Below are positions 44,939 to 60,679 of a stretch of 64,000 bases of DNA, piece by piece. The stretch comes from Patescibacteria group bacterium (lineage in GTDB: Bacteria > Patescibacteriota > Patescibacteriia > PEXW01). The notes under the pieces are model-generated. The model was given only the letters and a program-made list of their open reading frames with translations. It made no database searches and was not told the DNA's origin. The position numbers and the translations under genes were made by a program. Position 1 is the stretch's first letter. The number at the start of each line of letters is the position of its first letter. The stretch lies in assembly GCA_038065235.1 (NCBI GenBank), contig JBBTRK010000005.1:22389-86388 (forward strand), written 5' to 3'.

Positions 44939-45316
44939 TTGAAAATACTTGGTAAACACCTGCTGGCAGAGCTCACCGGCTGCAATGTGGCGGTGCTGGA
45001 TGACCTGGAAAAACTCCAGAACATCTTCAAAACCGCTGCCGAAAAGGCTGGCGCGACTGTGGTGAACGCCACTGCGCACCGTTTCTCCCCGCACGGCGTG
45101 TCCGTGGTCGTGGTGATTTCCGAATCCCACGTCTCGGTGCACACCTGGCCAGAGTACGCCTTCGCGTCAGTAGACTTCTACACCTGCGGTGAGAAGGTTG
45201 ACCCCCACAAAGGGCTCGACTACATCCGGCAGGAGTTGGGTGCTACCGACGCGCACGTGCAAGAGATTGCACGGGGTATTCCTTCTTCTATTGAGGAGAA
45301 GCTTGCCCACAAGTAG
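44939..45316 (+). CDS. speH: S-adenosylmethionine decarboxylase proenzyme (class 1B, pyruvoyl).
   Basis: ESHVSVHTWPE (Ser cleavage site) and the typical ~125-aa size. Confidence 0.85.
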   Translation: MKILGKHLLAELTGCNVAVLDDLEKLQNIFKTAAEKAGATVVNATAHRFSPHGVSVVVVISESHVSVHTWPEYAFASVDFYTCGEKVDPHKGLDYIRQELGATDAHVQEIARGIPSSIEEKLAHK

Positions 45317-45509
45317 CTAGTGGTTCATTCAAAGGCTTGAACAATTTGTTCAGGCCTTTATTTTTACCCCCTTTCTAACCCCCACTCACACGAATGCGGG
45401 AATAAAAAGAGTGGGCATCCGTTTGGATACCCACGTTTGCCGAATGGCGCGGCTTCTTATCCGCATGCTCACTATGATGTGAGGCTATGCATTACACCGC
45501 GGTTCGGGT

Positions 45510-45764
45510 TTAGGAGCGCTTGGTGCGCTTGCGTTCATCTTTGGCCTTCAGGAAGGCCGGGAGATTCGCACACGCTTTTTCAAGCATTGCATGTACGTGC
45601 TGATCGTACTCATCGCTCGAATGCCCATTTTGGCCGAGAATGAACTTTTGATACTCACTGGTTCTCCGACCGATTTCGTTCAATCCATCCTCTACCATGA
45701 AGCTCATGATAGTGCTGACAACGAACAGTTCGGCCGCGGCTTCTCTTGTTATTGGCTTAGCCAC
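45510..45764 (-). CDS. Small hypothetical protein.
   Basis: ORF only. Confidence 0.35.
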   Translation of the reverse strand: MAKPITREAAAELFVVSTIMSFMVEDGLNEIGRRTSEYQKFILGQNGHSSDEYDQHVHAMLEKACANLPAFLKAKDERKRTKRS

Positions 45765-45832
45765 ACAATCACCTCCTTTCAGGCTGTTTTAGGTGACAGG
45801 AAAATCTATACCAAAATGTAGCATTTGTCAAT

Positions 45833-45897
45833 GCCAACCCCGCTTGCCGACCGAAGCTCTAATGAGCGAAGGCTGGGGGCAGAGGGGTGGGGGAATT
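45833..45897. repeat. GC-rich palindromic repeat, family A, copy 1.
   Basis: ccaacccc...ttgccgaccgaagc...gcgaaggctgggggcagaggggtggggg. Confidence 0.7.
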
Positions 45898-45932
45898 GTT
45901 AGTAAAGCAGTTGCGGCTAAGCGTAAACATTC

Positions 45933-46658
45933 TTGACGTTATGTGTGGAACCTGGTAATTTTTTCAACCACGTTCTTTCCCATAACCAATCAGTGAAACG
46001 GAGGTACCCGTTGAGCAATCGAATTCTTGGCATGTGGTTACGTTACCTGTGTATAATACCTGGCCTACCGCCACGTGGTGATCTATCGACCGCGGATGTG
46101 GTACTGGTGCAGGCTTTCGGTCGCAACCAGTACCCCGACAGCGAGCTCGATCACATTACTGATCTGCATGTTGCGTACGGTAAGCAGGATGCCGTAACGA
46201 TAGCAAAGTTACGCGAACAAGGCTTTGATCCTGGTCAACCAAACCGAGACCTCGCTCTGGCTTGCCAGCAGCTAGTGGACACGTATGGTATTGCAGCAAT
46301 TGTCCAGTGGGAGGTTACCGTCGCCTTTGATCCCGCGTGGTACGCCGCGCACCGCAACCGCATTGTCAGTCTGTGGCCGACGGCGGAGTACTTTTCTACT
46401 AGGCTGGTGCAAGAGCACAGCCTGCGGGTGATGCAAGAGCACGGGTGGACAAAGCCCATTGAGCTGGCGCATAGCTGGCAAATCGTTCGCGCCTTCCTCA
46501 TTGTGAGGAAATTATTTGGCCATGAACCTATGGTCAGCTCCGAAACCATACGATGCTTTGATTCGAAATCCGTCCAATGGTGGACGAGGTCCAAGGTTAA
46601 ATGGTTAGCATACGAGTGCTTGGCGCGTGTCCATCATGTGTTGTATCGCTGGGTGTAA
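45933..46658 (+). CDS. Hypothetical protein.
   Basis: ORF only. The start may be an internal ATG. Confidence 0.4.
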   Translation: MTLCVEPGNFFNHVLSHNQSVKRRYPLSNRILGMWLRYLCIIPGLPPRGDLSTADVVLVQAFGRNQYPDSELDHITDLHVAYGKQDAVTIAKLREQGFDPGQPNRDLALACQQLVDTYGIAAIVQWEVTVAFDPAWYAAHRNRIVSLWPTAEYFSTRLVQEHSLRVMQEHGWTKPIELAHSWQIVRAFLIVRKLFGHEPMVSSETIRCFDSKSVQWWTRSKVKWLAYECLARVHHVLYRWV

Positions 46659-46705
46659 CGGAAGGTCTTTGAAACCGGCCCCAATTTTGGAGCCGGTTTT
46701 TCTTT

Positions 46706-46784
46706 TCCCCCAACCCCCCCCCTATCGGCCGAAGTCCCGCGCATGCGGGACGAAGGCTGAAACCCCCCCCCGCCCCCGGGGTAG
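46706..46784. repeat. Family A-like GC palindrome with long C homopolymers and an inner tcccgcgcatgcggga palindrome.
   Basis: Seen directly in the sequence. Confidence 0.6.
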
Positions 46785-46861
46785 AGAATATTTTGGCATT
46801 GTATTCTTTGATTGGTACACTACTGTGCATCAACGCACTTCACACTTATGAGCGCATTATT

Positions 46862-48016
46862 ATGAATCCTATTCGTCGGTTTGGCGCTTTACTAGCGATC
46901 GTGGCTGCAGTAGCAGTCATGCTTTTCCCTTTGGCTAGCGTTCGAGCGCAAGCCAACGAAGAGTCGTTCAAAGCGAAAGTGGTGGAAGTCCTTGAGAACA
47001 AAACCACTCCAGAAGAAGAAGGTGCGGCCCTACCCCAGCAGAAGTTGCAGCTGCAAGGCCTTTCTGGTACCTGGAAAGGGAAGAGCATCATCTTCGACGG
47101 TACGAAGTATGAGGTCATGTCGGCGAGTAGGTACGAAGTCGGTGATGTCGTCATGGTTAATGTATCTGCAGACGCAGATGGGAATAAAGAATTCTTCGTC
47201 GTCGACTACGTCCGGCAGAACTCGCTCTACTGGCTCGCAGCACTTTTCGCATTAGTGGTTGTCGTTGTGGGCAGGCTCAAAGGCCTGCGCGCACTTGCCG
47301 TGCTGCTGCTGACTTTCGTGGTCATCCAGAAGTTCATCGTGCCAAGAATCCTCGCCGGTGATAACCCGCTCGTCATTAGCATTCTTGGTGCGTTGGTTAT
47401 CCTCGGCATTGCAATCTACATTACGGAAGGCTTCAAGCGTTCCTCTACTATTGCCATTGGCTCGGTCCTGCTCTCGCTCATTATCACCGGCCTGCTGTCT
47501 ATTGCGTTTACCGCCGCAGCGAAGCTCACGGGATTTGCAAGTGAAGAAGCCATTTACCTCAAAGGGCTCTCTGGGGTGGACATTAACGTGCATGGCTTAC
47601 TACTCGCCGGCATCATCATCGGTACCCTGGGGGTTTTGGATGATGTCATTATTTCTCAAGTGATGGTGGTAGAAGAATTGAAGCACGCAAACCGTAGCCT
47701 GACGAATCGCACCGTCTTCGCAAAAGCAATGCGGGTGGGCATTGGGCACATGAGCGCCTTGGTGAACACGCTCTTCCTCGCCTACGCCGGGGCATCGCTG
47801 CCACTCCTCTTGCTCTTCAGTGTTCGCGAGGAGCCGTTCCTGACGTTTAATCAGGTCATCAACAACGACATGATCGCTACAGAAATTGTCCGTACGCTCA
47901 CGGGCAGCATTGGCATTGTCCTCGCCGTACCGATTGCCACAGCACTAGCAGTAAAATTTATAAAAGCAAGTAAAGGTGGGGATACCGAGGTTGCCGACAG
48001 CACCCACCGGCACTAA
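46862..48016 (+). CDS. YibE/F-family membrane protein.
   Basis: Signal/TM, an extracellular domain, then multiple TMs with a GVLDDVIIS motif. Confidence 0.5.
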   Translation: MNPIRRFGALLAIVAAVAVMLFPLASVRAQANEESFKAKVVEVLENKTTPEEEGAALPQQKLQLQGLSGTWKGKSIIFDGTKYEVMSASRYEVGDVVMVNVSADADGNKEFFVVDYVRQNSLYWLAALFALVVVVVGRLKGLRALAVLLLTFVVIQKFIVPRILAGDNPLVISILGALVILGIAIYITEGFKRSSTIAIGSVLLSLIITGLLSIAFTAAAKLTGFASEEAIYLKGLSGVDINVHGLLLAGIIIGTLGVLDDVIISQVMVVEELKHANRSLTNRTVFAKAMRVGIGHMSALVNTLFLAYAGASLPLLLLFSVREEPFLTFNQVINNDMIATEIVRTLTGSIGIVLAVPIATALAVKFIKASKGGDTEVADSTHRH

Positions 48017-48047
48017 CTGAAACCTTTTTGGTTCGGGTTCCCCCCAA

Positions 48048-48127
48048 CCCCCTTGCCGACCGTAGCTTACTTGCCGTCCGAAGCTTTAGCGTAGGAAGGG
48101 GCGCAGGCTGGGGGCAGAGGGGTGGGT
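48048..48127. repeat. Family A repeat, copy 3.
   Basis: ttccccccaacccccttgccgaccgtagctt...ggctgggggcagaggggtggg. Confidence 0.7.
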
Positions 48128-48164
48128 TTTGGCGTTCACTTCTTCAGCCTGGTAGACTAGGGGC

Positions 48165-48655
48165 ATGACCCTATTGCCCGCGGAGACGATTAGGGTCAGA
48201 ATGTTATTTTTTTGGGTTATGTAAAAACCGCTCGGGGATTGAGCGGTTTTGAGTAATACGGTATTTGGGTTACTTTCACATTAGCCGGCGAAAGCTTGGA
48301 TGGCCGCAGCGCAGGCTGCAATAATGAGCATAATGGTTACGGAAATTGCAGAGCAAACAAAAAGGATCAGGGTTACGTGCAAGAGTTTTGCCCGATAGTA
48401 CTTCCCAGCGCTTTCGGCAGTAAAAAGTAAGGCCCAGCTTATCACGACTCCAGCGCAGCTAATGGGGATTAAGAACAGCCACGCCCACCAATAAGCAGAT
48501 ATAAAATTTATCAATGTTGCCTCCGTTGGTTTTCTCAAACCTACACCCCCAGCTTGAGTAGTCAATAGCTTGCACGTACAATACAGGTATGAACCTCATG
48601 TCATCTTTGAATAGTGAACAAAAACAGGCGGTTACGCATGCGTCCGGCCCGCTGT
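48165..48655. repeat. Left copy of a 491-bp perfect direct repeat.
   Basis: Identical to 53606-54096 (atgaccctattgcccgcggagacg ... gcgtccggcccgct). Confidence 0.9.
48281..48514 (-). CDS. Small 2-TM membrane protein, left duplicate copy. Probable TTG start after GGAGG; the ORF track extends it to 48565.
   Basis: MINFISAYWWAWLFLIPIS... A highly hydrophobic ~77 aa. Confidence 0.5.
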   Translation of the reverse strand: MINFISAYWWAWLFLIPISCAGVVISWALLFTAESAGKYYRAKLLHVTLILFVCSAISVTIMLIIAACAAAIQAFAG

Positions 48656-48671
48656 TAATCGTTGCTGGTGG
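48589..48671 (+). pseudogene. Duplicated 5' fragment of the UvrD-like helicase gene.
   Basis: MNLMSSLNSEQKQAVTHASGPLLIVAG is identical to the start of the 54031 gene, then diverges before Walker A. Confidence 0.75.
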
Positions 48672-48755
48672 AGAGATATTGTTAGGTAGGCCACGAAAGT
48701 CGACACACGAAAGTCGGCACTTGATATTCTGTATTACTTTGGGTAGAGTATCTCT

Positions 48756-49031
48756 ATGCTCTTACACGTAAATGTACCCCTCTCCATTTTCCGCGAAGGT
48801 AAGCGTTTTGTGGCCTTTACCCCAGCACTCGACCTCTCTACCTCTGGCAAGTCCCTTGCCGAGGCAAAGTCTCGTTTTTCCGAAGCCGTCCAGCTCTTCT
48901 TTGAAGAGTTAGAACGGATGGGGACAGTGGACGAAACACTTTCCGATCTCGGCTGGCACAAAGCCGAGCGGAAGTGGCAAGCGCCCCAGCCAATTTTTCA
49001 AGATACACAGCGGGTGCAAGTCGCGGTGTAA
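48756..49031 (+). CDS. hicB: HicB-family antitoxin (UPF0150 fold).
   Basis: FVAFTPALDLSTSGKSLAEAKSRFSEAVQLFFEELE matches the HicB N-domain pattern. Adjacent to hicA. Confidence 0.65.
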   Translation: MLLHVNVPLSIFREGKRFVAFTPALDLSTSGKSLAEAKSRFSEAVQLFFEELERMGTVDETLSDLGWHKAERKWQAPQPIFQDTQRVQVAV

Positions 49032-49035
49032 TTTT

Positions 49036-49266
49036 ATGCCGCGCGTCACGCCGGTACACTGGAAGCGCTTTGAGAAGTTTCTCCTCTACGTTGGTTGCAC
49101 GTTCGTTCGAGAGAAAGGTGACCACCGCATCTACACGCGGGATGGTTTATCGCGCCCGGTTGTTGTCCCCCGCGACACGCAGCTGCCGATATTCATTATA
49201 CGGAATAACTTACGCGTCCTTGGTATTTCGACGGACGACTACTTGCAAATTTTAGACCGCGTGTAG
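49036..49266 (+). CDS. hicA: HicA-family mRNA interferase toxin.
   Basis: WKRFEKFLLYVGCTFVREKGDHRIYTRDG...VVVP fits the K..L...GW...R.KGSH..F HicA pattern. Confidence 0.7.
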   Translation: MPRVTPVHWKRFEKFLLYVGCTFVREKGDHRIYTRDGLSRPVVVPRDTQLPIFIIRNNLRVLGISTDDYLQILDRV

Positions 49267-49352
49267 CAGGTTCCTCGTATGGCCCTATTGCCCATGCGCT
49301 AGGGGATTTGTTTATGCTTCCGAGCGCAGCATCTCCAAGCTGCGCTCTCTCC

Positions 49353-49392
49353 ATTCCCCCAACCCCCGCCCGCCCCAGGGGGCAGAGGGATT
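49353..49392. repeat. Family A repeat, short copy.
   Basis: cccccaacccccgcccgccccagggggcagaggg. Confidence 0.6.
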
Positions 49393-49481
49393 GACAAAGC
49401 GTAGTATTTCTAGTACATTGTATTGTTCCTAGAAAAAGTACAAAGTACCCTGACAATATTCACACAGAAAGGTGGAATTTC

Positions 49482-50468
49482 GTGCAAAAAGACCCAGTTG
49501 TTTACTTGGGCGAGGCATGGCGTGATGCACATGCCGTCGCGGTTCTGGATCATCAACGAGTCGTTGCAGAAAAGCAACTGGCTCGTACGCTCGTCCAAGA
49601 CGAAGATGTCATGGGCGAACGAGTTCTTTACGGTTGCACAGTGCAAGTGCCAGTTGGCATCGCACATGCAGATCGTGCTGTAGAATCTGCTTCTACCGAG
49701 TTTGAGCTTGTTCAAGCAGAGGCAGAACAGGCAAAAGCATTCGAATGCGAATGTCTGACGGAGACCGGTATAGCCCCGCTAGCAGTTGTACCGACGAATA
49801 TATGGGAACAGGTGACCAAGGCCTGGGGGTTGGTGAGGTTCGAATACCTGGAGCACTCCCGCGCCTACGCGCGTACTGTCAGCGAGCCGCCAATGCCTTC
49901 GGAGACTCGTAGAGCTGCGTGGATGTACTCCATTTCTGCTTGCATTGCACTGTGCATGGTCGCCATTCTGGCGATCGTTGCATCGGTATACTGGTGGGGT
50001 GCCGCATTCGTTGCTGTGTTTCTTTCCTGGTGTGCCTATGTTCTGGTTCGCGAGTACCGCACAAAGTCAAAAGCGCGTAGTGCATACGAGCAGCGTAAAC
50101 AGACACCGGGAGGGTTCGTTTCCGAGCTCTGGCCAGATGGGCATGACTATTACGAGTACCTCGTTCGAATGTCTGATTTCGGTGAGTTCTGCCAGCTTCC
50201 CGTAGCGTTTCCAAACGCACCCAAGAGCTTTGTTGAGAAGTTGCTTCGGTTAGAATCCAAGAGGGTACATTGCTGCATTGCCGCCGCCCCCGAAGCAATT
50301 CACGTCAAGCTTAGCGAAGCAAGACCGGCACCGAATGCCGATCCCATACTGTATATCAAGTCTCCATGCGGAGGCTTCGTAGCAGTCCTCGACCGCTTCG
50401 GTAACTTCGAAAATGAAGCGCGTGCCGTCCAGCAAGCGCAAGACATCACGGCACAGTACTACGCCTAA
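49482..50468 (+). CDS. Hypothetical protein with two central TM helices.
   Basis: GTG start after AAAGGTGG. Confidence 0.45.
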   Translation: MQKDPVVYLGEAWRDAHAVAVLDHQRVVAEKQLARTLVQDEDVMGERVLYGCTVQVPVGIAHADRAVESASTEFELVQAEAEQAKAFECECLTETGIAPLAVVPTNIWEQVTKAWGLVRFEYLEHSRAYARTVSEPPMPSETRRAAWMYSISACIALCMVAILAIVASVYWWGAAFVAVFLSWCAYVLVREYRTKSKARSAYEQRKQTPGGFVSELWPDGHDYYEYLVRMSDFGEFCQLPVAFPNAPKSFVEKLLRLESKRVHCCIAAAPEAIHVKLSEARPAPNADPILYIKSPCGGFVAVLDRFGNFENEARAVQQAQDITAQYYA

Positions 50469-50522
50469 CACCAACATTCGTTGTTTGATGACCAGCACCC
50501 TAAAAAGTGCTGGTTTTCTTTT

Positions 50523-50633
50523 TCCCCCAACCCCCTTGCCGTCCGTAGCTTTCTTGCCGACCGAAGCCTTGGCGAAGGTCGGAGCGTAGGACGGTGGCGT
50601 AGGTCGGTGCGCCCCGAGGGAGGGGGCAGCGGC
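50523..50633. repeat. Family A repeat, expanded copy with internal cgtaggWcgg sub-repeats.
   Basis: tttcccccaacccccttgccgtccgtagctttcttgccgaccgaagc...gagggagggggcagcggccc. Confidence 0.7.
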
Positions 50634-50678
50634 CCAGGTTGACGCCCACTTTCGGCTGGCGTACACTAGTTTTTACTT

Positions 50679-50951
50679 ATGTCTGCCCCAACTACTGAAT
50701 ACCTAGACCAGCGTTTTGAGCGCCTGGAATTAGCTACGCAATCTATTCTGACCGAAATGCGTCAGCGGTTTGCTGACCATGACGCCCGTTTCCAGCGTAT
50801 TGAAGCAACCTTAGCAACCCTTGTAGAATCCGTTGATCGTTTTGCAAAAATTTACACCGATCTAAACCAGGAAGTCGTGGTTATGCGGCAACAGCTTCGC
50901 GACGTGGAATCGCGTGTGGGGAAACTGGAGCTCAAGTTGAAGACAGCGTAA
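50679..50951 (+). CDS. Small coiled-coil hypothetical protein.
   Basis: ORF followed by a terminator hairpin. Confidence 0.45.
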   Translation: MSAPTTEYLDQRFERLELATQSILTEMRQRFADHDARFQRIEATLATLVESVDRFAKIYTDLNQEVVVMRQQLRDVESRVGKLELKLKTA

Positions 50952-51085
50952 TTATTCATTTTCTGGCAAACCCCGAGCATCCGCCCGGGGTTTTCTTTTT
51001 GCCGAATTTTCCCCCACCCCCAACCCCCGCGCCCCGGAACGTAAAACAAAAAGCCCAACTCTCGTGAGTTGGGCCAAAAGTAATT

Positions 51086-51313
51086 TTACTTTTTCGTATC
51101 GCCCTTCTTCGTGCATTCGACGCTAACCTTCAGCCGCCACTGTGCACCGCAGCGCGTGCAGGTAAAAGTCTTTTTGCCATCGACGAATACGACTGGCTTG
51201 CCACAGTGGCATGCCTGGGAGGGGATAGGCGTGAAGAGATGACCTATTTCCAGAATCAACCTCTCGCCGGCAGTTTGAATCACTTTTCTTAAAGAGCTAG
51301 TTTCGCTTGCCAT
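51086..51313 (-). CDS. Small zinc-ribbon protein.
   Basis: CHCG...CTRCG. Confidence 0.45.
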   Translation of the reverse strand: MASETSSLRKVIQTAGERLILEIGHLFTPIPSQACHCGKPVVFVDGKKTFTCTRCGAQWRLKVSVECTKKGDTKK

Positions 51314-51384
51314 GTAAATACCTCACTTTGTATGTGACTTTGTTTAACGGCTTACTGTAGCTAGGTAAGCTGCCTTTGTCAACC

Positions 51385-51466
51385 AAACCCCGCGCCCCCG
51401 CCCCAGGGGAGGGCAGAGGTCCGCCCGGCACGCCTACGGCGCAGCCGTGGCGGACGGGGGTGGGGG
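51385..51466. repeat. Family A repeat copy. A partial copy also lies at 51009-51037.
   Basis: caaaccccgcgcccccgccccaggggagggcagagg...gggggtgggggat. Confidence 0.65.
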
Positions 51467-51540
51467 ATAACCTGTTCACAAGCTAGCCCTTGCCGTTTGC
51501 TGTGGGAAAGCTAAAATAGTACTTATTTTAAAGTTATTGT

Positions 51541-52335
51541 ATGACTTCTGATAAAGAGTTTAATAAGGCAGCGCTGACAGCCGTAATATGCGCATTCATA
51601 ATCATGACATTTGTATTATTGTGGCGTTCTGGGGTGGATATAAGGTGGGCTGATGTACTAATTAATTTGTGTATAGCGTTACTTACAGCAATAATTTCAA
51701 TATTCGCCGCATTTGCTTTGTATAAGAGAGGGAAGAAAGCTGAGCAAAAAAGAGTGTTCGCAAACTTTAAACTGCTGTTTGCCGCATTTGTTTCAGAGAC
51801 TAATGACAATTTAGGTATACTAGTGTCATATCAAAAATCTGTAACGACAGATTCAATTTCGCATTTTAAAATGCTAACTGAAGTAATATCTAAAATAGTT
51901 ACTAACCATTTAATCTATAAACATTTAAGTGAGGAGCATGTAGTAGCAATTCGTTACGCACTTCATAAATACTTAGAGCTAAATAGCTATCTTGAAATTT
52001 TGATGCCGATTTTTTATGAGGGGAAAATTACTGAGCATTTAGTAAAACAGTTGCAGTTAGATGCAAAGAAAGTCAGGTATTATGCACTCGTTTTGCAGAA
52101 TTTAAACCAGGTTGCATTAAATGTGCTTGACGTTAGGTGGGTACCAAGTACAGATACTAAGTTGTTATATATGGATTTGTTGAAAAATGAGCCTAAGGAA
52201 GACGATCTTGAAAAATTTATTGATAAGTTGAAAAGCCATATAGAAATTGAGAAAAATATTAGCGCTCAACAAAAAGCGATTTCTAAAAAGAACTATTTAG
52301 CCGCAATGGAGAGGTACGAGAAAAAGTTAGAGTGA
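51541..52335 (+). CDS. AT-rich hypothetical protein with an N-terminal 2-TM anchor.
   Basis: Strongly AT-rich relative to the flanks. Confidence 0.55.
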   Translation: MTSDKEFNKAALTAVICAFIIMTFVLLWRSGVDIRWADVLINLCIALLTAIISIFAAFALYKRGKKAEQKRVFANFKLLFAAFVSETNDNLGILVSYQKSVTTDSISHFKMLTEVISKIVTNHLIYKHLSEEHVVAIRYALHKYLELNSYLEILMPIFYEGKITEHLVKQLQLDAKKVRYYALVLQNLNQVALNVLDVRWVPSTDTKLLYMDLLKNEPKEDDLEKFIDKLKSHIEIEKNISAQQKAISKKNYLAAMERYEKKLE

Positions 52336-52433
52336 ATCACGATACCTCACCTCAAGGGGCACATCAGTTACACCCGGCCATATGGTTTATTGTAAAGAGC
52401 TTAGAATATGAGCTCACATAACGCATAGATATT

Positions 52434-53180
52434 ATGAAGAAAGGGACAAAAATTTCGATACGTCTCAACCCCTACGTTTTTTTATATTCTGAAGCAAAGT
52501 TCTTTTTAGAGCACAGCAGTGTTAGTAGAGACTCTAAAAATGTGACCGATCTTATTAAGCGTTCAAAATTTGCAAGAACGAGCATAATTCTGTTCCAAGC
52601 TACGGTGGAATCAATACTTCGGTGGCTTCTTTTTAATGGCGCAATAAAAGGTATTTCAATGAGTTTAAAGAAAAAAATCGACCGAATGGATTTCAAGACC
52701 CGATTGGTTGAAATCACGAACGCTAATTGTAAAAAAATAAAGGTGTCTAATTTTCAGAAATACAATCACTTACTAGAAATGGCTGACCTAAGAAACAGCA
52801 TAATTCATCAAGAACATCTTCAAATGCAAGGCACCGTGGAAACTTTCGATAAAGTAAACAATAAAATAAAGATCCACCTAATTTCACGGAGTGAATTTTA
52901 TACTCATTCAAAACTCCAGAAGAATGTCAGACTCGTTGACTATTTTGATGCAATAAAAAGTAACGAAATTGTAGACGAGTTTGTTGATTGGTTGAAAATC
53001 AATCTTAAACGCCCAGAAGACTTTATCAACACGTTTAGCATTGTTGCCCATAATATAAAATCTAGAAGCCGGAAATTAAAAATCGGTTCAAGTTTACAGA
53101 TTGAAATTAAAGGTAGAGGAGAAGATCTCATCGATATGGCTAGCTATTGGCCAAATACAAAAATGACTTTTAGATTGTAA
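52434..53180 (+). CDS. AT-rich hypothetical protein with an RNxxxH (HEPN-like) motif.
   Basis: EMADLRNSIIHQEH. AT-rich. Confidence 0.55.
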   Translation: MKKGTKISIRLNPYVFLYSEAKFFLEHSSVSRDSKNVTDLIKRSKFARTSIILFQATVESILRWLLFNGAIKGISMSLKKKIDRMDFKTRLVEITNANCKKIKVSNFQKYNHLLEMADLRNSIIHQEHLQMQGTVETFDKVNNKIKIHLISRSEFYTHSKLQKNVRLVDYFDAIKSNEIVDEFVDWLKINLKRPEDFINTFSIVAHNIKSRSRKLKIGSSLQIEIKGRGEDLIDMASYWPNTKMTFRL

Positions 53181-53319
53181 TCTCACACCCTATTTTTTGG
53201 CATCTCCTATCCTGCCTGGTAGACTAGGTACATGACCCTATTGCCCCAAGAAAAATAGTTTTTGTTTGAAAAAAAGCCACCCGTAGAGAGTGGCTTGCAT
53301 TTTGCAACGATGTTTTTGC

Positions 53320-53532
53320 TCATGTCGCCGTGAGGGCGTGTACTCCTGCAATTATCAGTAGTACTACTGAGCTTGCACCGACCAGAAAGAACATAGAAAA
53401 AAGAAAACCCAGGAATCTTTGGTATTTTATACTCATCAGCGAGATGACGCTGAAGTACATTCCCAGTACGCCCAGTAACCCAATGATTCCCGTGAGAATC
53501 CAGACCCACCAAAGCGCTGTTATTAAATCCAC
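53320..53532 (-). CDS. Small 2-TM membrane protein, paralogous to the 48281/53723 genes.
   Basis: MDLITALWWVWILTG... AGGAGG RBS. The upstream region is similar to the paralog's upstream region. Confidence 0.55.
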   Translation of the reverse strand: MDLITALWWVWILTGIIGLLGVLGMYFSVISLMSIKYQRFLGFLFSMFFLVGASSVVLLIIAGVHALTAT

Positions 53533-53605
53533 ATTTTCCTCCTTGTGTTTTCTTCAACCTACACCAGCCGCTTGAGTAGTCAATGGCTAGCACCTGCAAT
53601 GAGGC

Positions 53606-54096
53606 TATGACCCTATTGCCCGCGGAGACGATTAGGGTCAGAATGTTATTTTTTTGGGTTATGTAAAAACCGCTCGGGGATTGAGCGGTTTTGAGTAATA
53701 CGGTATTTGGGTTACTTTCACATTAGCCGGCGAAAGCTTGGATGGCCGCAGCGCAGGCTGCAATAATGAGCATAATGGTTACGGAAATTGCAGAGCAAAC
53801 AAAAAGGATCAGGGTTACGTGCAAGAGTTTTGCCCGATAGTACTTCCCAGCGCTTTCGGCAGTAAAAAGTAAGGCCCAGCTTATCACGACTCCAGCGCAG
53901 CTAATGGGGATTAAGAACAGCCACGCCCACCAATAAGCAGATATAAAATTTATCAATGTTGCCTCCGTTGGTTTTCTCAAACCTACACCCCCAGCTTGAG
54001 TAGTCAATAGCTTGCACGTACAATACAGGTATGAACCTCATGTCATCTTTGAATAGTGAACAAAAACAGGCGGTTACGCATGCGTCCGGCCCGCTC
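53606..54096. repeat. Right copy of the 491-bp direct repeat. It carries the genuine 5' end of the helicase gene.
   Basis: See the left copy. Confidence 0.9.
53723..53956 (-). CDS. Small 2-TM membrane protein, right duplicate copy.
   Basis: Identical to the 48281..48514 copy. Confidence 0.5.
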   Translation of the reverse strand: MINFISAYWWAWLFLIPISCAGVVISWALLFTAESAGKYYRAKLLHVTLILFVCSAISVTIMLIIAACAAAIQAFAG

Positions 54097-57000
54097 CTTA
54101 TCGTTGCCGGCGCGGGGACGGGCAAGACCACCGTCGTCACCCAGCGCATTGCCTGGCTCATTGCCGAAAAGAAGATTAAGCCTGACCACATCCTCGGGTT
54201 AACGTTCACGGACAAAGCCGCCGGGGAACTGGAAGAGCGCGTGGACAAGCTGCTGCCCATGGGCTACGTGGATTTGTGGGTGAGCACGTTCCACAGCTTC
54301 TGCGAGCGCATCCTGCGGGATCACGCCCTGGACATTGGCCTTAGCCCCGACTTCACCTTGCTGGATGAGACGGACCAGGCCATTCTGATGCGCGAGCACC
54401 TGGAGCAATTCGACTTGAGCTACTACCGGCCGTTGGGCAACCCGACGAAGTTCGTGTCCAGCCTCATCAAGCACTTCAGCCGGTGCAAGGATGAAGCAAT
54501 TCGGCCAGAGGAATATCTGAAATACGCAGAAAAGTTACGGCTGGATTTGGATCAGGTGCATGGGCGCAAAAAGCATTCGCAGGATGAAGACAAGGATGAA
54601 ATCGTTGAAGTAGACAGGATAAACGAAATTGCGAACGCGTACCACACCTACCAGCAGCTCCTGTTCCAGAAGGGGAGCCTGGACTTCGGCGACCTCATCA
54701 CGCAGACGCTCTATCTCTTCCAGCAGCGGCCCAAGATTCTGGAGCGCTACCGCAAGCAGTTCGAGTACATCCTGGTGGACGAATTCCAGGACACGAACTG
54801 GGCGCAGTACGAGCTGGTGAAGTTGCTCGCTGCCCCGCAGAACAACCTGACCGTGGTGGGGGATGATGACCAGAGTATCTACAAGTTCCGCGGCGCCAGC
54901 GTGGCCAACATTCTGGCGTTCAAGACGGACTTCCCCAAAGCCAAAGAAGTGGTGCTCACCCAGAACTACCGCAGCACGCAAAACATTCTGGACTTGGCCT
55001 ACGACTTCATCCAGGCGAACAACCCGAATAGGTTAGAGGTGCAGCTTGGTAATACACCCCCCCTTACCCCCCCTTCGAAAGGGGGGGAGGGTGAGGGAGC
55101 CAAGAAGCGTGGGCGACGGAAAAATTCCGCACCCCAATTATCTCCCTCTTCACAAGGGGGAGAGGGAGGGGGTCGAGACAAGGCCTTTGCGATTAGCAAA
55201 AAGCTTTTTGCTCAAGAGCAAGGCACCGGTACAATAGAGTATTCCATTGCACCGATTCTGGAGCAGGAAGCCACTGGCGCAGTGGAGAAAATCCTGGAGC
55301 TCAAGAAGAAGAAAGGCACCAGCTACAACGATTTTGCCATTCTGGTGCGCGCCAATGATTCGGCGCAGCCCTTCATCCAGCGCCTGAAAGCCGCGGACGT
55401 GCCGTTCCAGTTCGTGGCCACGGCCGGGCTGTACCGCCAACCCATTGTGCTGGACATCCTCAACTACCTCAAGCTGCTAGATAACTTCCACGAGAGCGCC
55501 AGCTTGTACCGCATGCTCACCCTCCCATCCCTGTGCATTCCCTTGCAGGATGTGATGAGCATGATGGCTACAGCGCGGCGGGAGACCAAGTCGCTGTACG
55601 AAGTGTCCAAGAACGTCCGTGCGCTCACCGGGATGCAACCCGAGACAATCGCGGCTGTGGAAAAACTTCATGGGTGGCTCGAAGCGCACGGCCAACTGGC
55701 GCGCACGCAGCCCGTGGGTGAAGTGGCCTTGAAGTTCTTGGAAGACTCGGGTTTGATGAAAGACCTCACCAGCTCCACAGACGCTGACCACTTGGAAGTG
55801 GTGAACTACATGAACCAGCTGTTCCAAGTGTTCCAGAGCTTCCAGATGCGGCACGAAGAACCGACGGTGAAGAATTTTTTGCACGAATTAGCTTTCGCCC
55901 AAGACGCGGGCGATTCTGGAAGTCTGCGGCCGCCCGAATGGGAGCAAGGCCCAGAGGCTGTGAAGCTCATGACCATTCACAGCGCCAAAGGCTTGGAATT
56001 CCCGTACGTGTTCATTGCGAACTTGGTTGATAAGAGATTCCCCACAATCGAGCGCCGCGACGCCATTGAACTACCCGATGATCTCGTCAGAGAGAAACTT
56101 CCCGAAGGGGACTGGCACTTGCAAGAAGAGCGACGCCTCATGTATGTGGCCATCACCCGCGCCAAGCAAGGCGTGTTCTTCACGGCCGCGGAAGACTACG
56201 GCGGCACGCGCAAGAAAAAGCCCTCGCGCTTCATTGAAGAGCTTGGCCTCAAAGCCAAACCGTTCAAATTAAAGGGTGGATTGTTGGATAAGCAAAAGGC
56301 GCCTGCACGTCAAGAAAATGACGCCGAATTACTGCGTAAAGCACTGCCCCCGTACTTCAGCTTCACGCAGTTGAAGGCGTTTGAGAAATGCCCTAAGCAG
56401 TACAAGTACGCCCACTTGCTGAAGATCCCGGTGCCAGGGCATGCCACGTTGAGCTTTGGCCAAACCATTCATAACACCTTGCTCAACTTCTTCAAGCTGG
56501 CACGCGAGCGCGGCATGGCCGGTCAGGCTGATTTGTTCGGCAAGAAAGACCAGGCCACCAGCGGCCCGCCTGTTACCTGGGCCGAGCTGCAGCAAATTTA
56601 CCAAGCCAACTGGCAAGACATGTGGTACAGCAGCATGGCGCAGAAGACGGAGTACAAGCACCGCGGCGTAAAGTTCCTCAAAAACTTCTACGATTCTCTC
56701 CCAACACCGTGGCCACAACCAACCGAGCTGGAAAAAGGTTTTACCATTGTCATCAACGGCCATAAAGTAAAAGGCAAGATTGACCGCATTGACCCCAGCA
56801 CTGGCGGCATAGAAATTATTGACTACAAGACCAGCGAGAAACCGCCAGCAGAAAACAAAGCCGATTTGGAACAGCTGCACATTTACGCTATGGCCGCGCG
56901 CGAAGCGCTTGGACTCAATCCGGTGAAGCTCACCTTCATTTACCTGGCCGCCGAAAAACCCTTTAGCTACCCAATTGACGAAAAGGCCATTGAGAAAACC

Positions 57001-57123
57001 CGCGCCGAGATAGGGGAGACCATTGAGGCAATTTTGAAAAGTGACTTTGTTGCCACGCCGAGCAAGTTCACCTGCGTATCCTGCGATTTTCGAAATATCT
57101 GCGAGGATAGGTATAGAGGGTAA
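54031..57123 (+). CDS. UvrD/PcrA-like superfamily-1 helicase fused to a C-terminal RecB-family (PD-(D/E)xK, Cys-cluster) nuclease domain.
   Basis: Walker A AGAGTGKT, DEFQDTN, and the helicase motifs. C-terminal IIDYKTS and CVSCDFRNICEDR. Confidence 0.9.
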   Translation: MNLMSSLNSEQKQAVTHASGPLLIVAGAGTGKTTVVTQRIAWLIAEKKIKPDHILGLTFTDKAAGELEERVDKLLPMGYVDLWVSTFHSFCERILRDHALDIGLSPDFTLLDETDQAILMREHLEQFDLSYYRPLGNPTKFVSSLIKHFSRCKDEAIRPEEYLKYAEKLRLDLDQVHGRKKHSQDEDKDEIVEVDRINEIANAYHTYQQLLFQKGSLDFGDLITQTLYLFQQRPKILERYRKQFEYILVDEFQDTNWAQYELVKLLAAPQNNLTVVGDDDQSIYKFRGASVANILAFKTDFPKAKEVVLTQNYRSTQNILDLAYDFIQANNPNRLEVQLGNTPPLTPPSKGGEGEGAKKRGRRKNSAPQLSPSSQGGEGGGRDKAFAISKKLFAQEQGTGTIEYSIAPILEQEATGAVEKILELKKKKGTSYNDFAILVRANDSAQPFIQRLKAADVPFQFVATAGLYRQPIVLDILNYLKLLDNFHESASLYRMLTLPSLCIPLQDVMSMMATARRETKSLYEVSKNVRALTGMQPETIAAVEKLHGWLEAHGQLARTQPVGEVALKFLEDSGLMKDLTSSTDADHLEVVNYMNQLFQVFQSFQMRHEEPTVKNFLHELAFAQDAGDSGSLRPPEWEQGPEAVKLMTIHSAKGLEFPYVFIANLVDKRFPTIERRDAIELPDDLVREKLPEGDWHLQEERRLMYVAITRAKQGVFFTAAEDYGGTRKKKPSRFIEELGLKAKPFKLKGGLLDKQKAPARQENDAELLRKALPPYFSFTQLKAFEKCPKQYKYAHLLKIPVPGHATLSFGQTIHNTLLNFFKLARERGMAGQADLFGKKDQATSGPPVTWAELQQIYQANWQDMWYSSMAQKTEYKHRGVKFLKNFYDSLPTPWPQPTELEKGFTIVINGHKVKGKIDRIDPSTGGIEIIDYKTSEKPPAENKADLEQLHIYAMAAREALGLNPVKLTFIYLAAEKPFSYPIDEKAIEKTRAEIGETIEAILKSDFVATPSKFTCVSCDFRNICEDRYRG
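55055..55172 (+). repeat. In-frame GC-rich palindromic insertion within the helicase ORF.
   Basis: CCCCCCC-TTCGAAA-GGGGGGG and tccctct...agaggga hairpins. Encodes the low-complexity stretch NTPPLTPPSKGGEGEGAKKRGRRKNSAPQLSPSSQGGEGGG. Confidence 0.6.
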
Positions 57124-57200
57124 TTAAAGTTGTCATGCCGGACTCGATCCGGCATCTTGCCGCAAGGCCCCGGGTCTGACGCCCGGGGCGACATAAATGA

Positions 57201-57749
57201 GTGAAGCTTATGCAAGAAGAACTTTTCGACGCCTGCGACGAACAAGGCAACCCAAAGGGTGAGCGGGTAACCCGTGCAGACGCGCACACCAAAGGAATTT
57301 GGCACCACACCGTGCACCTGTACCTGGTACGGAAGGTGGGGGATGACTTCGCGTTCCTCATGCACCTTCGAGCAAAGACCAAAGACTTGAACCCGGACAA
57401 GTGGGACACGCGCTTCGGCGGACACGTGCTTGCGGGTATGAGCATCGCCGATACCGCTCGCCGAGAACTCAAAGAAGAAGTTGGTTTGAACTTGGAGTAC
57501 TATAAAATAGTTGAAGGTGTTGTAACGAAACGTGACAATTTTCCAAATAGGGAATTTACTCACACATTTTTTGTTGAGGTTCCAGAAGATGTCCCAGTAC
57601 AATTCGAAGACGGTGAAGTGCAGCGCGTGGAGTGGATGACGGCAAAGGAAATTATTGCTTCAATGCAAACCAAGTCTCGCCCGTGGGCCGGGAGTCTGCA
57701 AGGCTTCCAAGAAACGCTGAAGGTTTTGCAGGAGAGGTGGAAGGGGTAG
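57201..57749 (+). CDS. NUDIX hydrolase.
   Basis: Nudix box GGHVLAGMSIADTARRELKEEVGL. Confidence 0.8.
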   Translation: MKLMQEELFDACDEQGNPKGERVTRADAHTKGIWHHTVHLYLVRKVGDDFAFLMHLRAKTKDLNPDKWDTRFGGHVLAGMSIADTARRELKEEVGLNLEYYKIVEGVVTKRDNFPNREFTHTFFVEVPEDVPVQFEDGEVQRVEWMTAKEIIASMQTKSRPWAGSLQGFQETLKVLQERWKG

Positions 57750-58190
57750 TGTTATTTGTCATGCCGGAGAGCACATCCGGCATCTTGTAGTTGCACTGAA
57801 GTGCGACCTAATGTTTTCCAGTTGATGGTGTTCCATCACGTGAATGCCACCCTTTCTTGGTGGCAAGAAAGGATGTAGCCCAAAGAAGCCAGCAGGGGGA
57901 ATCGATTCGCACACGAGAAGCACGCCATCCCATTTGTTGGATGGGCTCAGCGATTCCCCCTGCACCCGAATGCTAAACAAGTTTTCTCTTTTCCCTTTGA
58001 TCAACCGTGATTCGATGACATGAACCGTATAAACGTTTGGTCGTTCACCCGTATAACCCAGAGATCCCGGATCGGAGTCCGGGATGACAGTAAATGAGCA
58101 TTGCGTTGTACTATAATTGACACTATTACAGGAGGAGTATACTAGGGCGACATGAGCGTACGTGCTGGGTGTGGCTAACCTTCCCGCACT

Positions 58191-58763
58191 ATGGCAGTTT
58201 TCCTCGGGGTCATTGTGGTCATAAGTCTCTTCGTCGCAGCGATTGCGCTGTGCACGGCGCTGGTTGGCTTTGGCGCATGGCTGCGGTGGCGCATTGCACT
58301 GCTGCCGCATATGCGCCAATCTTCCGACTTGCGTACGTGGTACAAGCGCGAGAAGGTGAAAGACGATGACCGCCGCAACATGCAGCGCATGGCATTCGGT
58401 ATGGTCTTCCTCATCGTGCAGGTTCCTTTTTTCATTTTCTTCGAGCAACGCACATGGCCATTCCGAACGGTGCTGCTCGGCCTTGGTGTCTACTTAGCAC
58501 TCCGGGGAGTGTACGGCCACTGGCTCGGTGGTCGAGCGCGGTTGGAGCGTCATGTCACAGAAAAAGCATCGACAGCACACCATGCATTTGATTTACTGAC
58601 GCCCGAGGAGGGTGCGCGCTCGAGAGAGATCATGATGCGGCTCTTCACCGCTGAGCGAATTATTCGCCTGGGCGGGTATACAATCTTGGGTGTAGGCTTC
58701 GTGGCAGCCTTAGTGTGGGACGCTGGGGCTGGTGGCGCCCTGCCTTCGCTCGTGCTACCGTAA
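58191..58763 (+). CDS. Hypothetical integral membrane protein.
   Basis: 4-5 TM helices. Confidence 0.5.
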   Translation: MAVFLGVIVVISLFVAAIALCTALVGFGAWLRWRIALLPHMRQSSDLRTWYKREKVKDDDRRNMQRMAFGMVFLIVQVPFFIFFEQRTWPFRTVLLGLGVYLALRGVYGHWLGGRARLERHVTEKASTAHHAFDLLTPEEGARSREIMMRLFTAERIIRLGGYTILGVGFVAALVWDAGAGGALPSLVLP

Positions 58764-58785
58764 CTATAGAAAGGAGACGGGGCGT

Positions 58786-59082
58786 ATGGGTTTTACCCCG
58801 ATTAAGTACACGCTAAACCGTAATATTCAATCCTCTGGCCTGCAGGATCAGGTTGACGGCGCTCGAGTCATTGAGCTCTTTTCTTCTATTGTGGCGGAGG
58901 TGATTGGCGAAGGTATTGCCCAGAAAGTGAAGGGCCTCTACCTGAAGAATCGGACACTCACCGTGTCGGTTCCATCCCCGGTCATCGGCCAAGAAATCAA
59001 ATTACACGAGAATGCGATTGTGGACGCGCTCAACAAGAAAATGGAGGTCGTGGTGGTCGAGCGGTTGAGGTTTTTGGCATGA
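58786..59082 (+). CDS. DUF721 (DciA/RemB-like) small protein.
   Basis: AAAGGAGA RBS. ARVIELFSSIV...LYLKNRTLTVSVPSPVIGQEI pattern. Confidence 0.45.
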   Translation: MGFTPIKYTLNRNIQSSGLQDQVDGARVIELFSSIVAEVIGEGIAQKVKGLYLKNRTLTVSVPSPVIGQEIKLHENAIVDALNKKMEVVVVERLRFLA

Positions 59083-59227
59083 TTGCCCCTCTCCCCAGCC
59101 CTCTCCCGCGAAGGGGAGAGGGAGATTTTTTATACCCTCTCCTCCAGCAGGAGAGGGTGGCCGAAGGCCGGGAGAGGAGGATTGCGAGAAATAATTCGAG
59201 TGGAAAAATGAGAAGAAATATGGTATA

Positions 59228-59656
59228 GTGAAGGTGTTCGCAGCACCTCATTTTTTATTCATGAGCCTGAAGAATTACCTCATACTCTTCGCCGTCGGTA
59301 CGTTGCTCTCGTGGGGGGCGTGGGCAATCGTCCTCACGCAAATGAACCCAGACGTGAACCGCGCAATGACCGTGACGGCCTTTGCCATGTCACTCGGTTT
59401 CGCCGTGGCTGGGACGTTCGCCCTGGCAGGATTTGGGGTGCGGGCGATGTTCGGCAAAGATCCCGTGCTCTTCCGCGTGTTGCGCACGTCCGTGCGGCAG
59501 GGCGTTGTGGTTGCTGTACTGCTAGAAGGCCTACTCGTCCTGCAAGCTATGCGCTGGTTCGCCTGGTGGAACGTCATGCCTTTGGTACTTTTCTTTATTT
59601 TACTCGAAGGCTTTTTCTTATCGCAGGAAGCATTGCGTGAACGCCAGACTCGATGA
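59228..59656 (+). CDS. Hypothetical membrane protein.
   Basis: 4 TM helices. Confidence 0.45.
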   Translation: MKVFAAPHFLFMSLKNYLILFAVGTLLSWGAWAIVLTQMNPDVNRAMTVTAFAMSLGFAVAGTFALAGFGVRAMFGKDPVLFRVLRTSVRQGVVVAVLLEGLLVLQAMRWFAWWNVMPLVLFFILLEGFFLSQEALRERQTR

Positions 59657-60669
59657 AATCTGCAATTGAACAGCTCCAAGCCGAAACCCTCGACGCCCTA
59701 CAGCACGTGCAAGACGTTGCTGCTGTGGATGCACTTGAAATTGCTGTCCTCGGTCGCAAAGGCAAGCTCGCGGCAATCCTCTCGCGCATTCCAACCTTGC
59801 CCCCTGCGGAGCGGGCTGGTATTGGCACGCTCGCGAATGAGGTAAAGCAAGCGTTGCAGCAGGCCTTCAACGATTGCCGGACGAAGTTTAGCGGCACCAG
59901 CGACCACAGCCACTTCGATCCCACGTGGCCGGGCGTGGCGCCGAGCATCGGCCACCTTCATCCGGTCACGGCGTTCGTCGAGAAAGCAGTGCAGTTCTTC
60001 ACTTCGTTGGGCTACGCCGTAGCGGACGGGCCAGAGGTAGAAACCGCAGTCTACAACTTCGACAAGCTCAACATTCCAGCGAATCACCCGGTCCGTGATT
60101 TGTGGGACACCTACTACCTCAACCCCGAACGTGAGGGGATACTACTGCGCACCCAAACATCGCCGGTTCAGTTGCGGTACATGGAAAAGCATCGGCCGCC
60201 AGCGTTTTTCGTTGCTCCGGGTCGGGTATACCGTCGCGAAGCTACGGATGCCAGTCATGACACCAACTTCACTCAGCTGGAAGGTTTAGCAATTGACCGC
60301 GACCTGCACATCACCGATCTCATTGGCACGCTCAAGGCGTTCATCACCCATACCTTCGGAAACGTGAAGATGCGCGTGCGACCAAGCTACTTCCCGTTCG
60401 TGGAGCCTGGTATTGAAGTCGACATGTCCTGCCTCATTTGCGCAGGCAAAGGCTGCTCGGTGTGCAAGCAGACGGGTTGGCTAGAAATGCTCGGCGCTGG
60501 CATGGTGCACCCCAAGGTGCTGACCAACATGAAAGTAGACCCCAAGAAGTTCTCGGGCTTCGCCTTTGGCATTGGCGTGGAGCGCATGGTTATGTTGCTG
60601 CACGGCATTCCCGAAGTTCGTTTGCTGTTGAGTGGTGACCAGAGATTTTTAGAACAATTTCACTACTAA
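59653..60669 (+). CDS. pheS: Phenylalanine--tRNA ligase alpha subunit.
   Basis: NHPVRDLWDTYY, FTQLEGL and the class II motifs. Confidence 0.95.
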   Translation: MKSAIEQLQAETLDALQHVQDVAAVDALEIAVLGRKGKLAAILSRIPTLPPAERAGIGTLANEVKQALQQAFNDCRTKFSGTSDHSHFDPTWPGVAPSIGHLHPVTAFVEKAVQFFTSLGYAVADGPEVETAVYNFDKLNIPANHPVRDLWDTYYLNPEREGILLRTQTSPVQLRYMEKHRPPAFFVAPGRVYRREATDASHDTNFTQLEGLAIDRDLHITDLIGTLKAFITHTFGNVKMRVRPSYFPFVEPGIEVDMSCLICAGKGCSVCKQTGWLEMLGAGMVHPKVLTNMKVDPKKFSGFAFGIGVERMVMLLHGIPEVRLLLSGDQRFLEQFHY

Positions 60670-60679
60670 CGAACTTCAT

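Follow-up and report, generated by a model that had tools for sequence, protein, structure and literature searches.

Here we describe a 5.4-kb genomic islet at the 5' end of a helicase gene in a Patescibacteria group bacterium. The islet lies within a 64,000-nt stretch of contig JBBTRK010000005.1 (positions 22,389 to 86,388), which was analysed as a whole and is called the window below; coordinates refer to the window unless another locus is named, and related loci and contigs carry L numbers. The helicase gene (54031-57123, plus strand) is intact and encodes a 1030-aa UvrD-type helicase with a C-terminal PD-(D/E)XK nuclease. Upstream of it, a seed-and-extend search followed by base-by-base extension revealed that 48165-48653 and 53607-54095 (both plus strand) form a perfect direct repeat of 489 bp with an offset of 5442 bp, although "perfect" may overstate an identity of ~99-100%, since graph assemblies can write two near-identical copies from one shared edge. 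At a length of 489 bp, chance identity of the two copies is impossible. The unique part of the insert spans 48654-53606 (plus strand, 4953 bp) and, together with one repeat copy, makes up the 5442 bp of the islet.

Each repeat copy begins with a 15-nt motif, ATGACCCTATTGCCC, hereafter the core, which is followed by a bidirectional terminator hairpin, a gene for a small membrane protein with two transmembrane (TM) helices, a helicase promoter and the first 65 nt of the helicase coding sequence, i.e. codons 1-21 plus 2 nt, with the ATG at 48589 on the left and at 54031 on the right. The membrane gene is on the minus strand (48281-48514) and encodes 77 aa from a TTG at 48514 that is proximal to a ribosome-binding site and is the likely start, the open reading frame (ORF) extending to 48565; an identical second copy occupies 53723-53956 (minus strand). 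The promoter-like site of the helicase, P_h (48554-48582 and 53996-54024, plus strand), has the sigma-70-like form TTGAGT-17-TACAAT and ends 6 nt before the ATG, as in leaderless-type arrangements. A second promoter-like site, P_L, precedes the left copy and together with the first core (m1) covers 48129-48179 (plus strand) in the form TTGGCG-18-TAGACT-6-ATG; the repeat starts at that ATG. The left edge of the repeat is therefore the first base of a 15-nt core, and the right edge falls within the helicase coding sequence. A preliminary description of this DNA had given a 491-bp perfect repeat at 48165-48655 and 53606-54096; the perfect match holds, while the length is 489 bp and three of the ends were off by 1-2 bases. 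Its inventory of each copy (small 2-TM gene, promoter region and start of the UvrD-like gene) is confirmed, and the 27-residue peptide that it quoted is encoded identically by both copies.

The two copies of the helicase start have different fates. The right copy alone heads a complete gene, in agreement with the earlier view that only this copy is functional. Past the repeat, the left copy continues in frame through codons 22-27, where five changes, all synonymous, separate it from the resident gene (CTG TTA ATC GTT GCT GGT in the left stump, CTC CTT ATC GTT GCC GGC in the resident helicase), and the DNA is unrelated from ~48671 onwards. These last 17 nt of the stump (48654-48670) match the resident gene at 12 of 17 positions and the related locus L009 at 14 of 17, with all differences synonymous. 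The stump as a whole (48589-48670, plus strand) comprises codons 1-27 plus 1 nt, and its frame stays open to 48771 (60 aa). The left copy had been thought to decay into a frameshifted remnant before Walker A. Frameshift decay was rejected, since the reading frame is intact and the differences are synonymous; the copy is instead truncated at ~48671 and fused to foreign DNA. At the other junction, a helicase-type promoter of the islet, P_h', is followed by ATGACCCTATTGCC, which equals helicase codons 1-5 of relatives. Because the right repeat begins where P_h' meets the core, this junction can be read as a helicase start fused to the relic core of the recipient over 14-15 nt of identity. Homology to the target is thus present at both ends of the insert, and both stretches are short (~15 nt on the right, ~17 nt on the left).

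DNA identical to the window is present in many assemblies of Hainich groundwater wells. The closest relatives of the helicase are found in Patescibacteria metagenome-assembled genomes, several of them named Candidatus Kerfeldbacteria, and the host is a Kerfeldbacteria-like Patescibacterium of the Hainich aquifer. One of these assemblies contains the locus without the islet. The ENA contig L001 (177 kb) has zero mismatches to the window over 10,067 and 10,394 flanking bases (~20.4 kb), the sole difference being a 2-nt change of poly-C length at 46763-46764, inside a GC-rich repeat. Its layout is YibE_F, 572 bp and helicase, with one 489-bp copy and no insert, and it provides a precise empty site from short-read assemblies. 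Because a contig with identical flanks has a single copy and no insert, the locus is an insertion/duplication polymorphism at the 5' end of the helicase gene. This result bears out the earlier expectation that a related genome lacking the insert would show a single junction, and it supports the proposal of an insertion or duplication event at this gene end.

Both alleles recur: the long contigs that encode an identical YibE_F protein are evenly divided, four being occupied and four empty. The 1.09-Mb contig L092, which is indel-rich as is typical of long-read assembly, is colinear with the window from 45300 to 61536 across both repeats. Two contigs from replicate assemblies cross one repeat each, L002 the left and L003 the right. 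In several independent assemblies (short-read and Logan contigs), contigs break exactly at the repeat boundaries with overlaps of k-1 or k. A further contig, L111 (Logan ERR3858110), equals 53607-57786, so that it begins with the repeat itself and runs unbroken through the right boundary; k-mers linking the repeat to the left end of the islet seem absent from that run, and low coverage or another structural variant could explain this absence.

The cargo begins with a toxin-antitoxin (TA) pair. The hicB-like (91 aa) and hicA (76 aa) genes occupy 48756-49266 (plus strand) and have their own promoter at 48721-48749. The HicA domain was detected above the cut-off (PF07927, E 1.6e-9), and the protein also matches the toxin family phrog_353. 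The 91-aa partner ends 4 nt upstream; it has no Pfam or NCBIfam match and only weakly matches TTHA1756 (E 1). A HicA toxin domain with an adjoining small partner makes the pair a probable HicAB type II TA system. At the nucleotide level, hicBA is 93% identical to the hicBA genes at a different site in the relative L009. Three small genes follow: a 328-aa ORFan with two predicted TM helices (49482-50468, plus strand), for which a word-indexed search returned no relatives; a 90-aa coiled-coil ORF (50679-50951, plus strand); and a 75-aa Zn-ribbon ORF of the form CxxC...CxxC (51086-51313, minus strand). The last has weak similarity to the C-terminal TNB region of TnpB/Cas12f (E 0.006-0.02), and a PDB sequence search returned generic zinc fingers only. 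Its pattern PSQxCxCG...FxCxxCG is typical of the TNB zinc ribbon, but the RuvC motif that would follow is missing. Both a remnant of an IS605-family element and an unrelated Zn ribbon are possible.

An AT-rich cassette comes next (51480-53180, plus strand), with a GC content of 32-36% against 50-58% around it. It encodes a 264-aa N-terminal membrane protein (51541-52335, plus strand) and a 248-aa protein (52434-53180, plus strand) that has a four-helix HEPN fold with an Rx4-6H motif. The 248-aa protein was an ORFan by word-indexed search; an exhaustive search found 8 unannotated relatives, and the one genomic context inspected was uninformative. Homology between this protein and a 216-aa protein of L089 was considered and rejected, as BLASTP gave no support. 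Between the cassette and the right repeat lies a diverged paralogue of the repeat unit (53194-53614, 78-79% identical), i.e. a third copy of the unit, which adjoins the right repeat. Within the islet this unit, U', covers 53194-53606 (plus strand) and extends up to core m4, which makes up the first 15 nt of the right repeat. It contains the promoter P_L' (53197-53225, plus strand), core m3 (53232-53246, plus strand), a 70-aa membrane gene (53320-53532, minus strand) and the promoter P_h' (53572-53600, plus strand). The cargo had been listed before as hicBA, four small hypothetical genes and the AT-rich cassette; hicBA and the cassette are indeed there, and the third copy of the unit had been overlooked.

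Two contigs depart from the window at this unit. The 875-nt contig L095 (ENA ERZ1292636, well H32) holds U' and the entire right repeat, preceded by 26 nt that replace P_L' and the core. Read on the opposite strand, these first 26 nt are a P_L-type -35 region; they join the window sequence at 53246|53247, exactly at the 3' edge of the core. L095 could represent an inverted promoter segment in the population of another well, or a fold-back artefact. In L094 (Logan ERR2809145), a GC-rich fragment encoding a PanD-like C-terminus is joined at window position 53163 to ATGACTTTTAGATTG, upstream of P_L' and U'. This joint starts with an ATGAC motif that resembles the L012 form of the core, and the contig is probably chimeric.

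We searched for enzymes that could move such an islet. Scans of all cargo ORFs against Pfam, PADLOC, PHROGs and NCBIfam gave no integrase, transposase or recombinase, HicA being the only solid match, so the missed integrase or recombinase fragment that the preliminary description had suggested looking for in the cargo was not found. Likewise, the ~10 kb on each side yielded neither an integrase nor a recombinase, their gene tables listing housekeeping genes only, and ten further window ORFs of integrase-like size proved to be FtsA, FtsZ, HtrA, RF, ComEC and similar proteins, with no recombinase among them. An inverted-repeat search found none that pair the islet ends, and an Rfam scan of 45-55 kb at E<=1 returned one sub-threshold chance match only.

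These observations separate the islet from the main classes of mobile elements. As an integrase-mediated island or prophage it would be unusual, having no recombinase and, instead of a short att core at both junctions, a 489-bp repeat whose 15-nt core marks the left edge only. It has no transposase gene and no terminal inverted repeats, and a duplication of 489 bp is not short, so it does not resemble a transposon or insertion sequence (IS). Neither the window ORFs tested nor the flanks yielded IntI with attI and Pc. A search for attC sites found five or six co-oriented GC-rich composite repeats after gene ends, in which no GTTRRRY box was evident and which folded no better than shuffled sequences. 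What the islet does show are the hallmarks of an insertion-duplication: its flanking repeats are copies of the target, they are single in the empty allele, and they leave one truncated and one intact gene.

The core itself gives a clue to the history of the locus. It occurs four times in the window (48165, 49279, 53232 and 53607) against 0.05 occurrences expected, and two of the four are preceded by a promoter-like TTGGCR-17/18-TAGACT-6 arrangement. Core m2 (49279-49293, plus strand) reads ATGGCCCTATTGCCC, and its next 16 nt match the sequence after the core in L089. The helicase start reads ATG AAC CTC ATG TCA TCT TTG AAT in the window; the corresponding starts are TGGTAGACTAGcattATGCCCCTGTTGCCA in L101 (TGGTAGACTAGcatt, ATG CCC CTG TTG CCA ACC CTG AAC), ATGACTCTTTTGCCATCT in L103/L104 (ATG ACT CTT TTG CCA TCT TTG AAT), ATGACCCTTCTGCCATCT in L012/L102 (ATG ACC CTT CTG CCA TCT CTG AAT) and ATGACTCTCATGCCATCT in L089 (ATG ACT CTC ATG CCA TCT TTG AAT). 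Because the same sequence is the functional helicase start in relatives, we interpret the core as a relic of helicase codons 1-5. This 15-nt relic is found here and in five related genomes, often accompanied by the promoter that still drives the helicase in L101 and L009. In L009, L012/L102, L089 and L091 it lies upstream of the helicase, with unrelated sequences directly after TTGCCC. A metagenome scan for the pattern of P_L followed by the core returned three loci only.

Longer relics occur as well. The locus L101 (JGI Ga0376277_0029648, 2758-4810), with 77% helicase identity and the same small membrane gene, has a comparable layout and different cargo: the TM gene, a promoter with an 8-codon relic, a promoter with a 29-codon relic, a 68-aa gene, Fic, a P_L-type promoter and the intact helicase. 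Its 29-codon relic is 93% identical in nucleotides to the resident helicase gene. In the same locus, 333-1031 is a Y1/IS200-like transposase ORF that resembles REP-associated tyrosine transposases (RAYT-like; REP, repetitive extragenic palindromic; Pfam E 2.7e-6). In L091, 398-1805 (minus relative to the helicase orientation) encodes a SMODS nucleotidyltransferase (E 1e-28) and a two-TM SLATT_4 effector, a pair resembling cyclic-oligonucleotide-based antiphage signalling systems (CBASS), beside a P_L-core relic. Plainer arrangements also exist. L089, from another species, has P_L-core, the membrane gene, P_h and the helicase once each, which is the architecture of the empty allele, and L014 (78%) has the simple order of membrane gene, promoter and helicase. 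The small membrane protein family is kept beside the helicase in L089, L101 and L014. A scan of 80 other helicase loci from the candidate phyla radiation (CPR) found no helicase relics beyond those of L101; an apparent relic in L031 was rejected as a spurious match within a metallo-beta-lactamase-fold protein. Thus, in this clade the 5' end of the helicase gene is a hot spot that gathers accessory TA and defence-like genes, and every such event leaves behind a promoter with a relic stump of 5, 8 or 27-29 codons.

Variation is also seen within the helicase itself. Codons ~340-382 (55046-55175) contain an in-frame low-complexity insertion, PPLTPPSKGGEGEGAKKRGRRKNSAPQLSPSSQGGEGGG, composed of two GC-rich stretches that form hairpins. 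L009, L012 and L011 lack it or have a much shorter version; it is a variable linker of the helicase and possibly arose by in-frame insertion of a palindromic element. At the N-terminus of the L009 helicase (7986-8030), MPSLANAQPSLNDAQ shows a diverged 7-codon tandem duplication (PSLANAQ / PSLNDAQ), which likewise points to slippage or recombination at the start of this gene. No N-terminal variants were found in the 90% cluster of the helicase.

The region upstream of the helicase also contains GC-rich composite palindromic repeats, at 45846-45935, 46692-46790, 48038-48125, 49341-49400, 50509-50612 and 51001-51035, with an inverted one at ~51385-51470; L009 has them at 4808-4893, 5457-5522 and 6207-6273. 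They are composed of a T-rich tail, CCCCCAACCCCC, two copies of TTGCCGNCCGNAGC and two to three copies of GCGNAGGNCGG. In the 64-kb window they are confined to this variable region, nearly all co-oriented with the helicase and directly after gene ends. These repeats could be elements like REPs or miniature inverted-repeat transposable elements (MITEs), or cassette boundaries.

Because the long repeats are derived from the target, a precise single-copy allele exists, neither a recombinase nor inverted repeats were found and the insert ends are fragments of the helicase 5' end, we think it fairly probable that the islet is a strain-variable 5.4-kb insertion-duplication, made and removable by host homologous recombination and not by an integrase or transposase. 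One possible route would start with the uptake of DNA from a related lineage, probably by competence. The incoming DNA would then pair with the recipient in crossed order: the left helicase relic of the donor with the real gene start of the recipient, and the real helicase start of the donor with the upstream relic of the recipient. Repair would copy the 489-bp interval of the recipient on both sides, either by ends-in gap repair or through unequal exchange upon alternative pairing. Another possibility is that the left relic later converted the functional locus and so homogenised the copies; such ectopic conversion would account for an identity that ends ~17 nt short of the end of homology. 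In the opposite direction, recombination between the repeats would delete the islet and regenerate exactly the empty allele of L001, and the excised circle could return by Campbell-type integration.

One candidate component of such a route is encoded in the window. A ComEC/Rec2 "Competence" domain (PF03772, E 1.8e-54) lies at 20923-22053 within a protein encoded at 20923-22894, at a distance of 26 kb from the islet. Genes for homologous recombination and competence, together with genomic islands, have been reported in Patescibacteria (PMC12455944), and pneumococcal transformation generates tandem duplications via alternative pairing of repeats and interchromatid integration (PMC3784515). After the insertion, the helicase retains its promoter and full ORF. 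The left copy of the promoter is predicted to read through the 60-codon stump into hicBA, and HicAB may penalise loss of the islet. Identical flanks carry no decision between gain and loss; the layout in the outgroup speaks for an ancestral empty architecture, and the ease with which the islet can be deleted speaks for loss as the commonest event.

Several observations weigh against this explanation. The homology of ~15 nt at the right end and the homeology of ~17 nt beyond the repeat at the left end are short for RecA pairing. In several genomes the junctions lie exactly at the 3' edge of the core, which hints at a site specificity that homologous recombination does not need. No donor genome with the exact left relic was found, nor the cargo in another context: in exact protein look-ups for a donor or a different cargo context, every context was the same insertion, and viral contigs contained neither an exact match to the helicase 5' sequence nor a relative of the 328-aa ORF. 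The assemblies also call for care. For well H52, the Illumina libraries have inserts of 214-234 bp, and Nanopore reads with a mean of 5.6 kb exist for the same well (bioRxiv 10.1101/2019.12.18.880807). Because the library inserts are shorter than the repeat, the short-read "empty" contigs could reflect loop skipping and the "perfect" identity could reflect edge sharing. The empty allele rests on short-read assemblies, and read-level confirmation is needed both for it and for the perfect identity.

A first alternative, which we consider unlikely, is that the islet is an old resident: ectopic gene conversion would maintain or create the 489-bp identity, and the empty genomes would be simple deletions with no recent insertion. 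Perfect repeats of 489 bp allow deletion by a trivial mechanism, which yields precisely the empty allele. The identity moreover ends ~17 nt before the end of homology, as expected if conversion tracts cannot reach a heterology boundary, and in L101 the layout of relic, cassette and helicase has persisted over a long divergence, its relic being 93% identical to the resident gene. On the other hand, the single-unit layout common to L089, a different species, and the outgroup L014 favours an ancestral empty architecture, another lineage (L009) provides the closest matches to hicBA and the left relic, and the AT-rich cassette is foreign in composition. This alternative differs from insertion by recombination in polarity and timing only, as the underlying mechanism is the same.

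Somewhat less probable still is a site-specific cassette system, in which the 15-nt core ATGACCCTATTGCCC would be the attachment site of a recombinase encoded elsewhere, with integron-like serial insertion. Cassettes would bring an outward promoter and a new gene start, and the co-oriented CCCCCAACCCCC palindromes would be cassette-end sites. The behaviour of the core fits this proposal: it is conserved at 15 of 15 positions while the sequences 3' of TTGCCC fall into four unrelated classes (window, L009, L089, L012/L102 and L091 compared), the left edge of the repeat is its exact first base, and in L095 a different sequence adjoins the 3' edge of core m3. The REP-like elements also fit, being limited to the variable region, all co-oriented with the helicase and placed just after gene ends, with the hicBA of L009 between two such elements at another position; a Y1 (IS200/RAYT-like) transposase is found in the variable region of L101. 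Yet no integrase or recombinase was found within ~10 kb on either side or among the window ORFs tested, and the right edge of the repeat lies within coding sequence and not at the core. Since the relics differ in length (5, 8 and 27-29 codons), there is no single crossover point. Moreover, homologous TM-gene modules follow three of the four classes, which may go back to a single old event and have diverged since; the palindromic elements have no obvious attC R'/R'' consensus, fold no better than shuffles and are not recognised by Rfam; and the cassettes carry promoters of their own.

A bolder form of this idea, which we hold to be just as doubtful, takes the helicase start as a dedicated landing pad for recombinase-less or trans-mobilised cassettes (TA, HEPN, Fic and CBASS-adjacent), with the promoter and the helicase 5' fragment serving as targeting arm or att site. 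Repeated insertion at codon 5 and at codons 27-29 would each time leave a relic and re-create the gene.

Finally, it is very improbable that the islet is an assembly artefact, a separate circle or DNA of another strain that merely has the 489 bp in common and was threaded into the contig, or that the empty contigs result from loop skipping with no polymorphism at all. In favour of these readings, the insert-only contigs (L004-L007, L098 and L099) end in repeat overlaps of k or k-1, a graph that fits a circle plus an empty site, the library inserts are shorter than the repeat, and L111 crosses the right repeat boundary but begins at the first base of the repeat. Against them, the single contig L092 runs from the left flank through both repeats and the islet to the helicase, which makes a pure artefact unlikely, L002 and L003, from replicate assemblies, each cross one repeat, and both alleles recur in several assemblies.

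The genome plasticity of CPR bacteria and Patescibacteria has mostly been inferred from composition-based predictions of islands. The islet makes this plasticity concrete at one locus, with both alleles, base-exact junctions, no recombinase found and a competence gene nearby. Homologous, or "alternative-pairing", recombination thereby becomes a testable route for the gain and loss of TA and defence-like genes in ultra-small bacteria. The stacked helicase-start relics, seen in several lineages whose cargo differs from one to the next, are the mark of a recombination hot spot, which could be followed in the existing Hainich long-read and time-series data. If the junctions were site-specific, they would point to an undescribed mechanism of cassette capture, and a true landing pad would amount to integron-like capture of accessory genes in CPR bacteria, anchored on a repair helicase.

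Compared with known systems, the region resembles integron arrays and clusters of attC sites lacking integrases (CALINs) in its co-oriented small units, each followed by an imperfect palindromic repeat, in its fixed anchor and in its TA genes. It differs from them in that neither IntI nor a recognisable attC consensus is present, the units have their own promoters, and the junctions of the 5.4-kb polymorphism do not fall at the palindromic repeats. Integrase islands that supply a replacement gene end likewise keep the target gene intact, leave a partial duplicate at the other junction, have an empty site and carry TA or defence-like cargo. Unlike these, the islet has no integrase or excisionase, its repeat is a 489-bp host-identical sequence and not a short att core, and its target is a 5' end with the promoter. 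The microcin H47 island of E. coli (PMC3191183, PMC5426353) is also small, lacks a site-specific recombinase of its own and has direct repeats through which it excises; those repeats are short and their recombination is reported there to be RecA-independent, whereas the repeats of the islet are long and duplicate a functional gene start.

Two systems come closer in mechanism. In transformation-triggered duplication (Johnston et al. 2013, PMC3784515), parts of the donor DNA pair non-colinearly and the interval between them is duplicated, as in the model proposed here. Competence and homologous recombination are needed, and ComEC is encoded in the window. The duplications described there span 100-900 kb, involve IS-derived repeats and arise from self DNA, whereas the islet has a 489-bp interval and 5 kb of foreign cargo, and its mechanism is only inferred. 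In Campbell-type, or ends-in, insertion-duplication by a non-replicating plasmid that carries a 5' gene fragment, the direct repeats are copied from the target itself, the gene is left as a truncated stump plus an intact copy, no element-borne recombinase is needed and the event is reversible between the repeats, all of which applies to the islet. The islet differs in being a natural event in an uncultivated CPR bacterium and in having very short end homology, ~15 and 17 nt, outside the duplicated block. The islet is thus a variant of known insertion-duplication and genomic-islet biology, set in a clade-specific hot spot.

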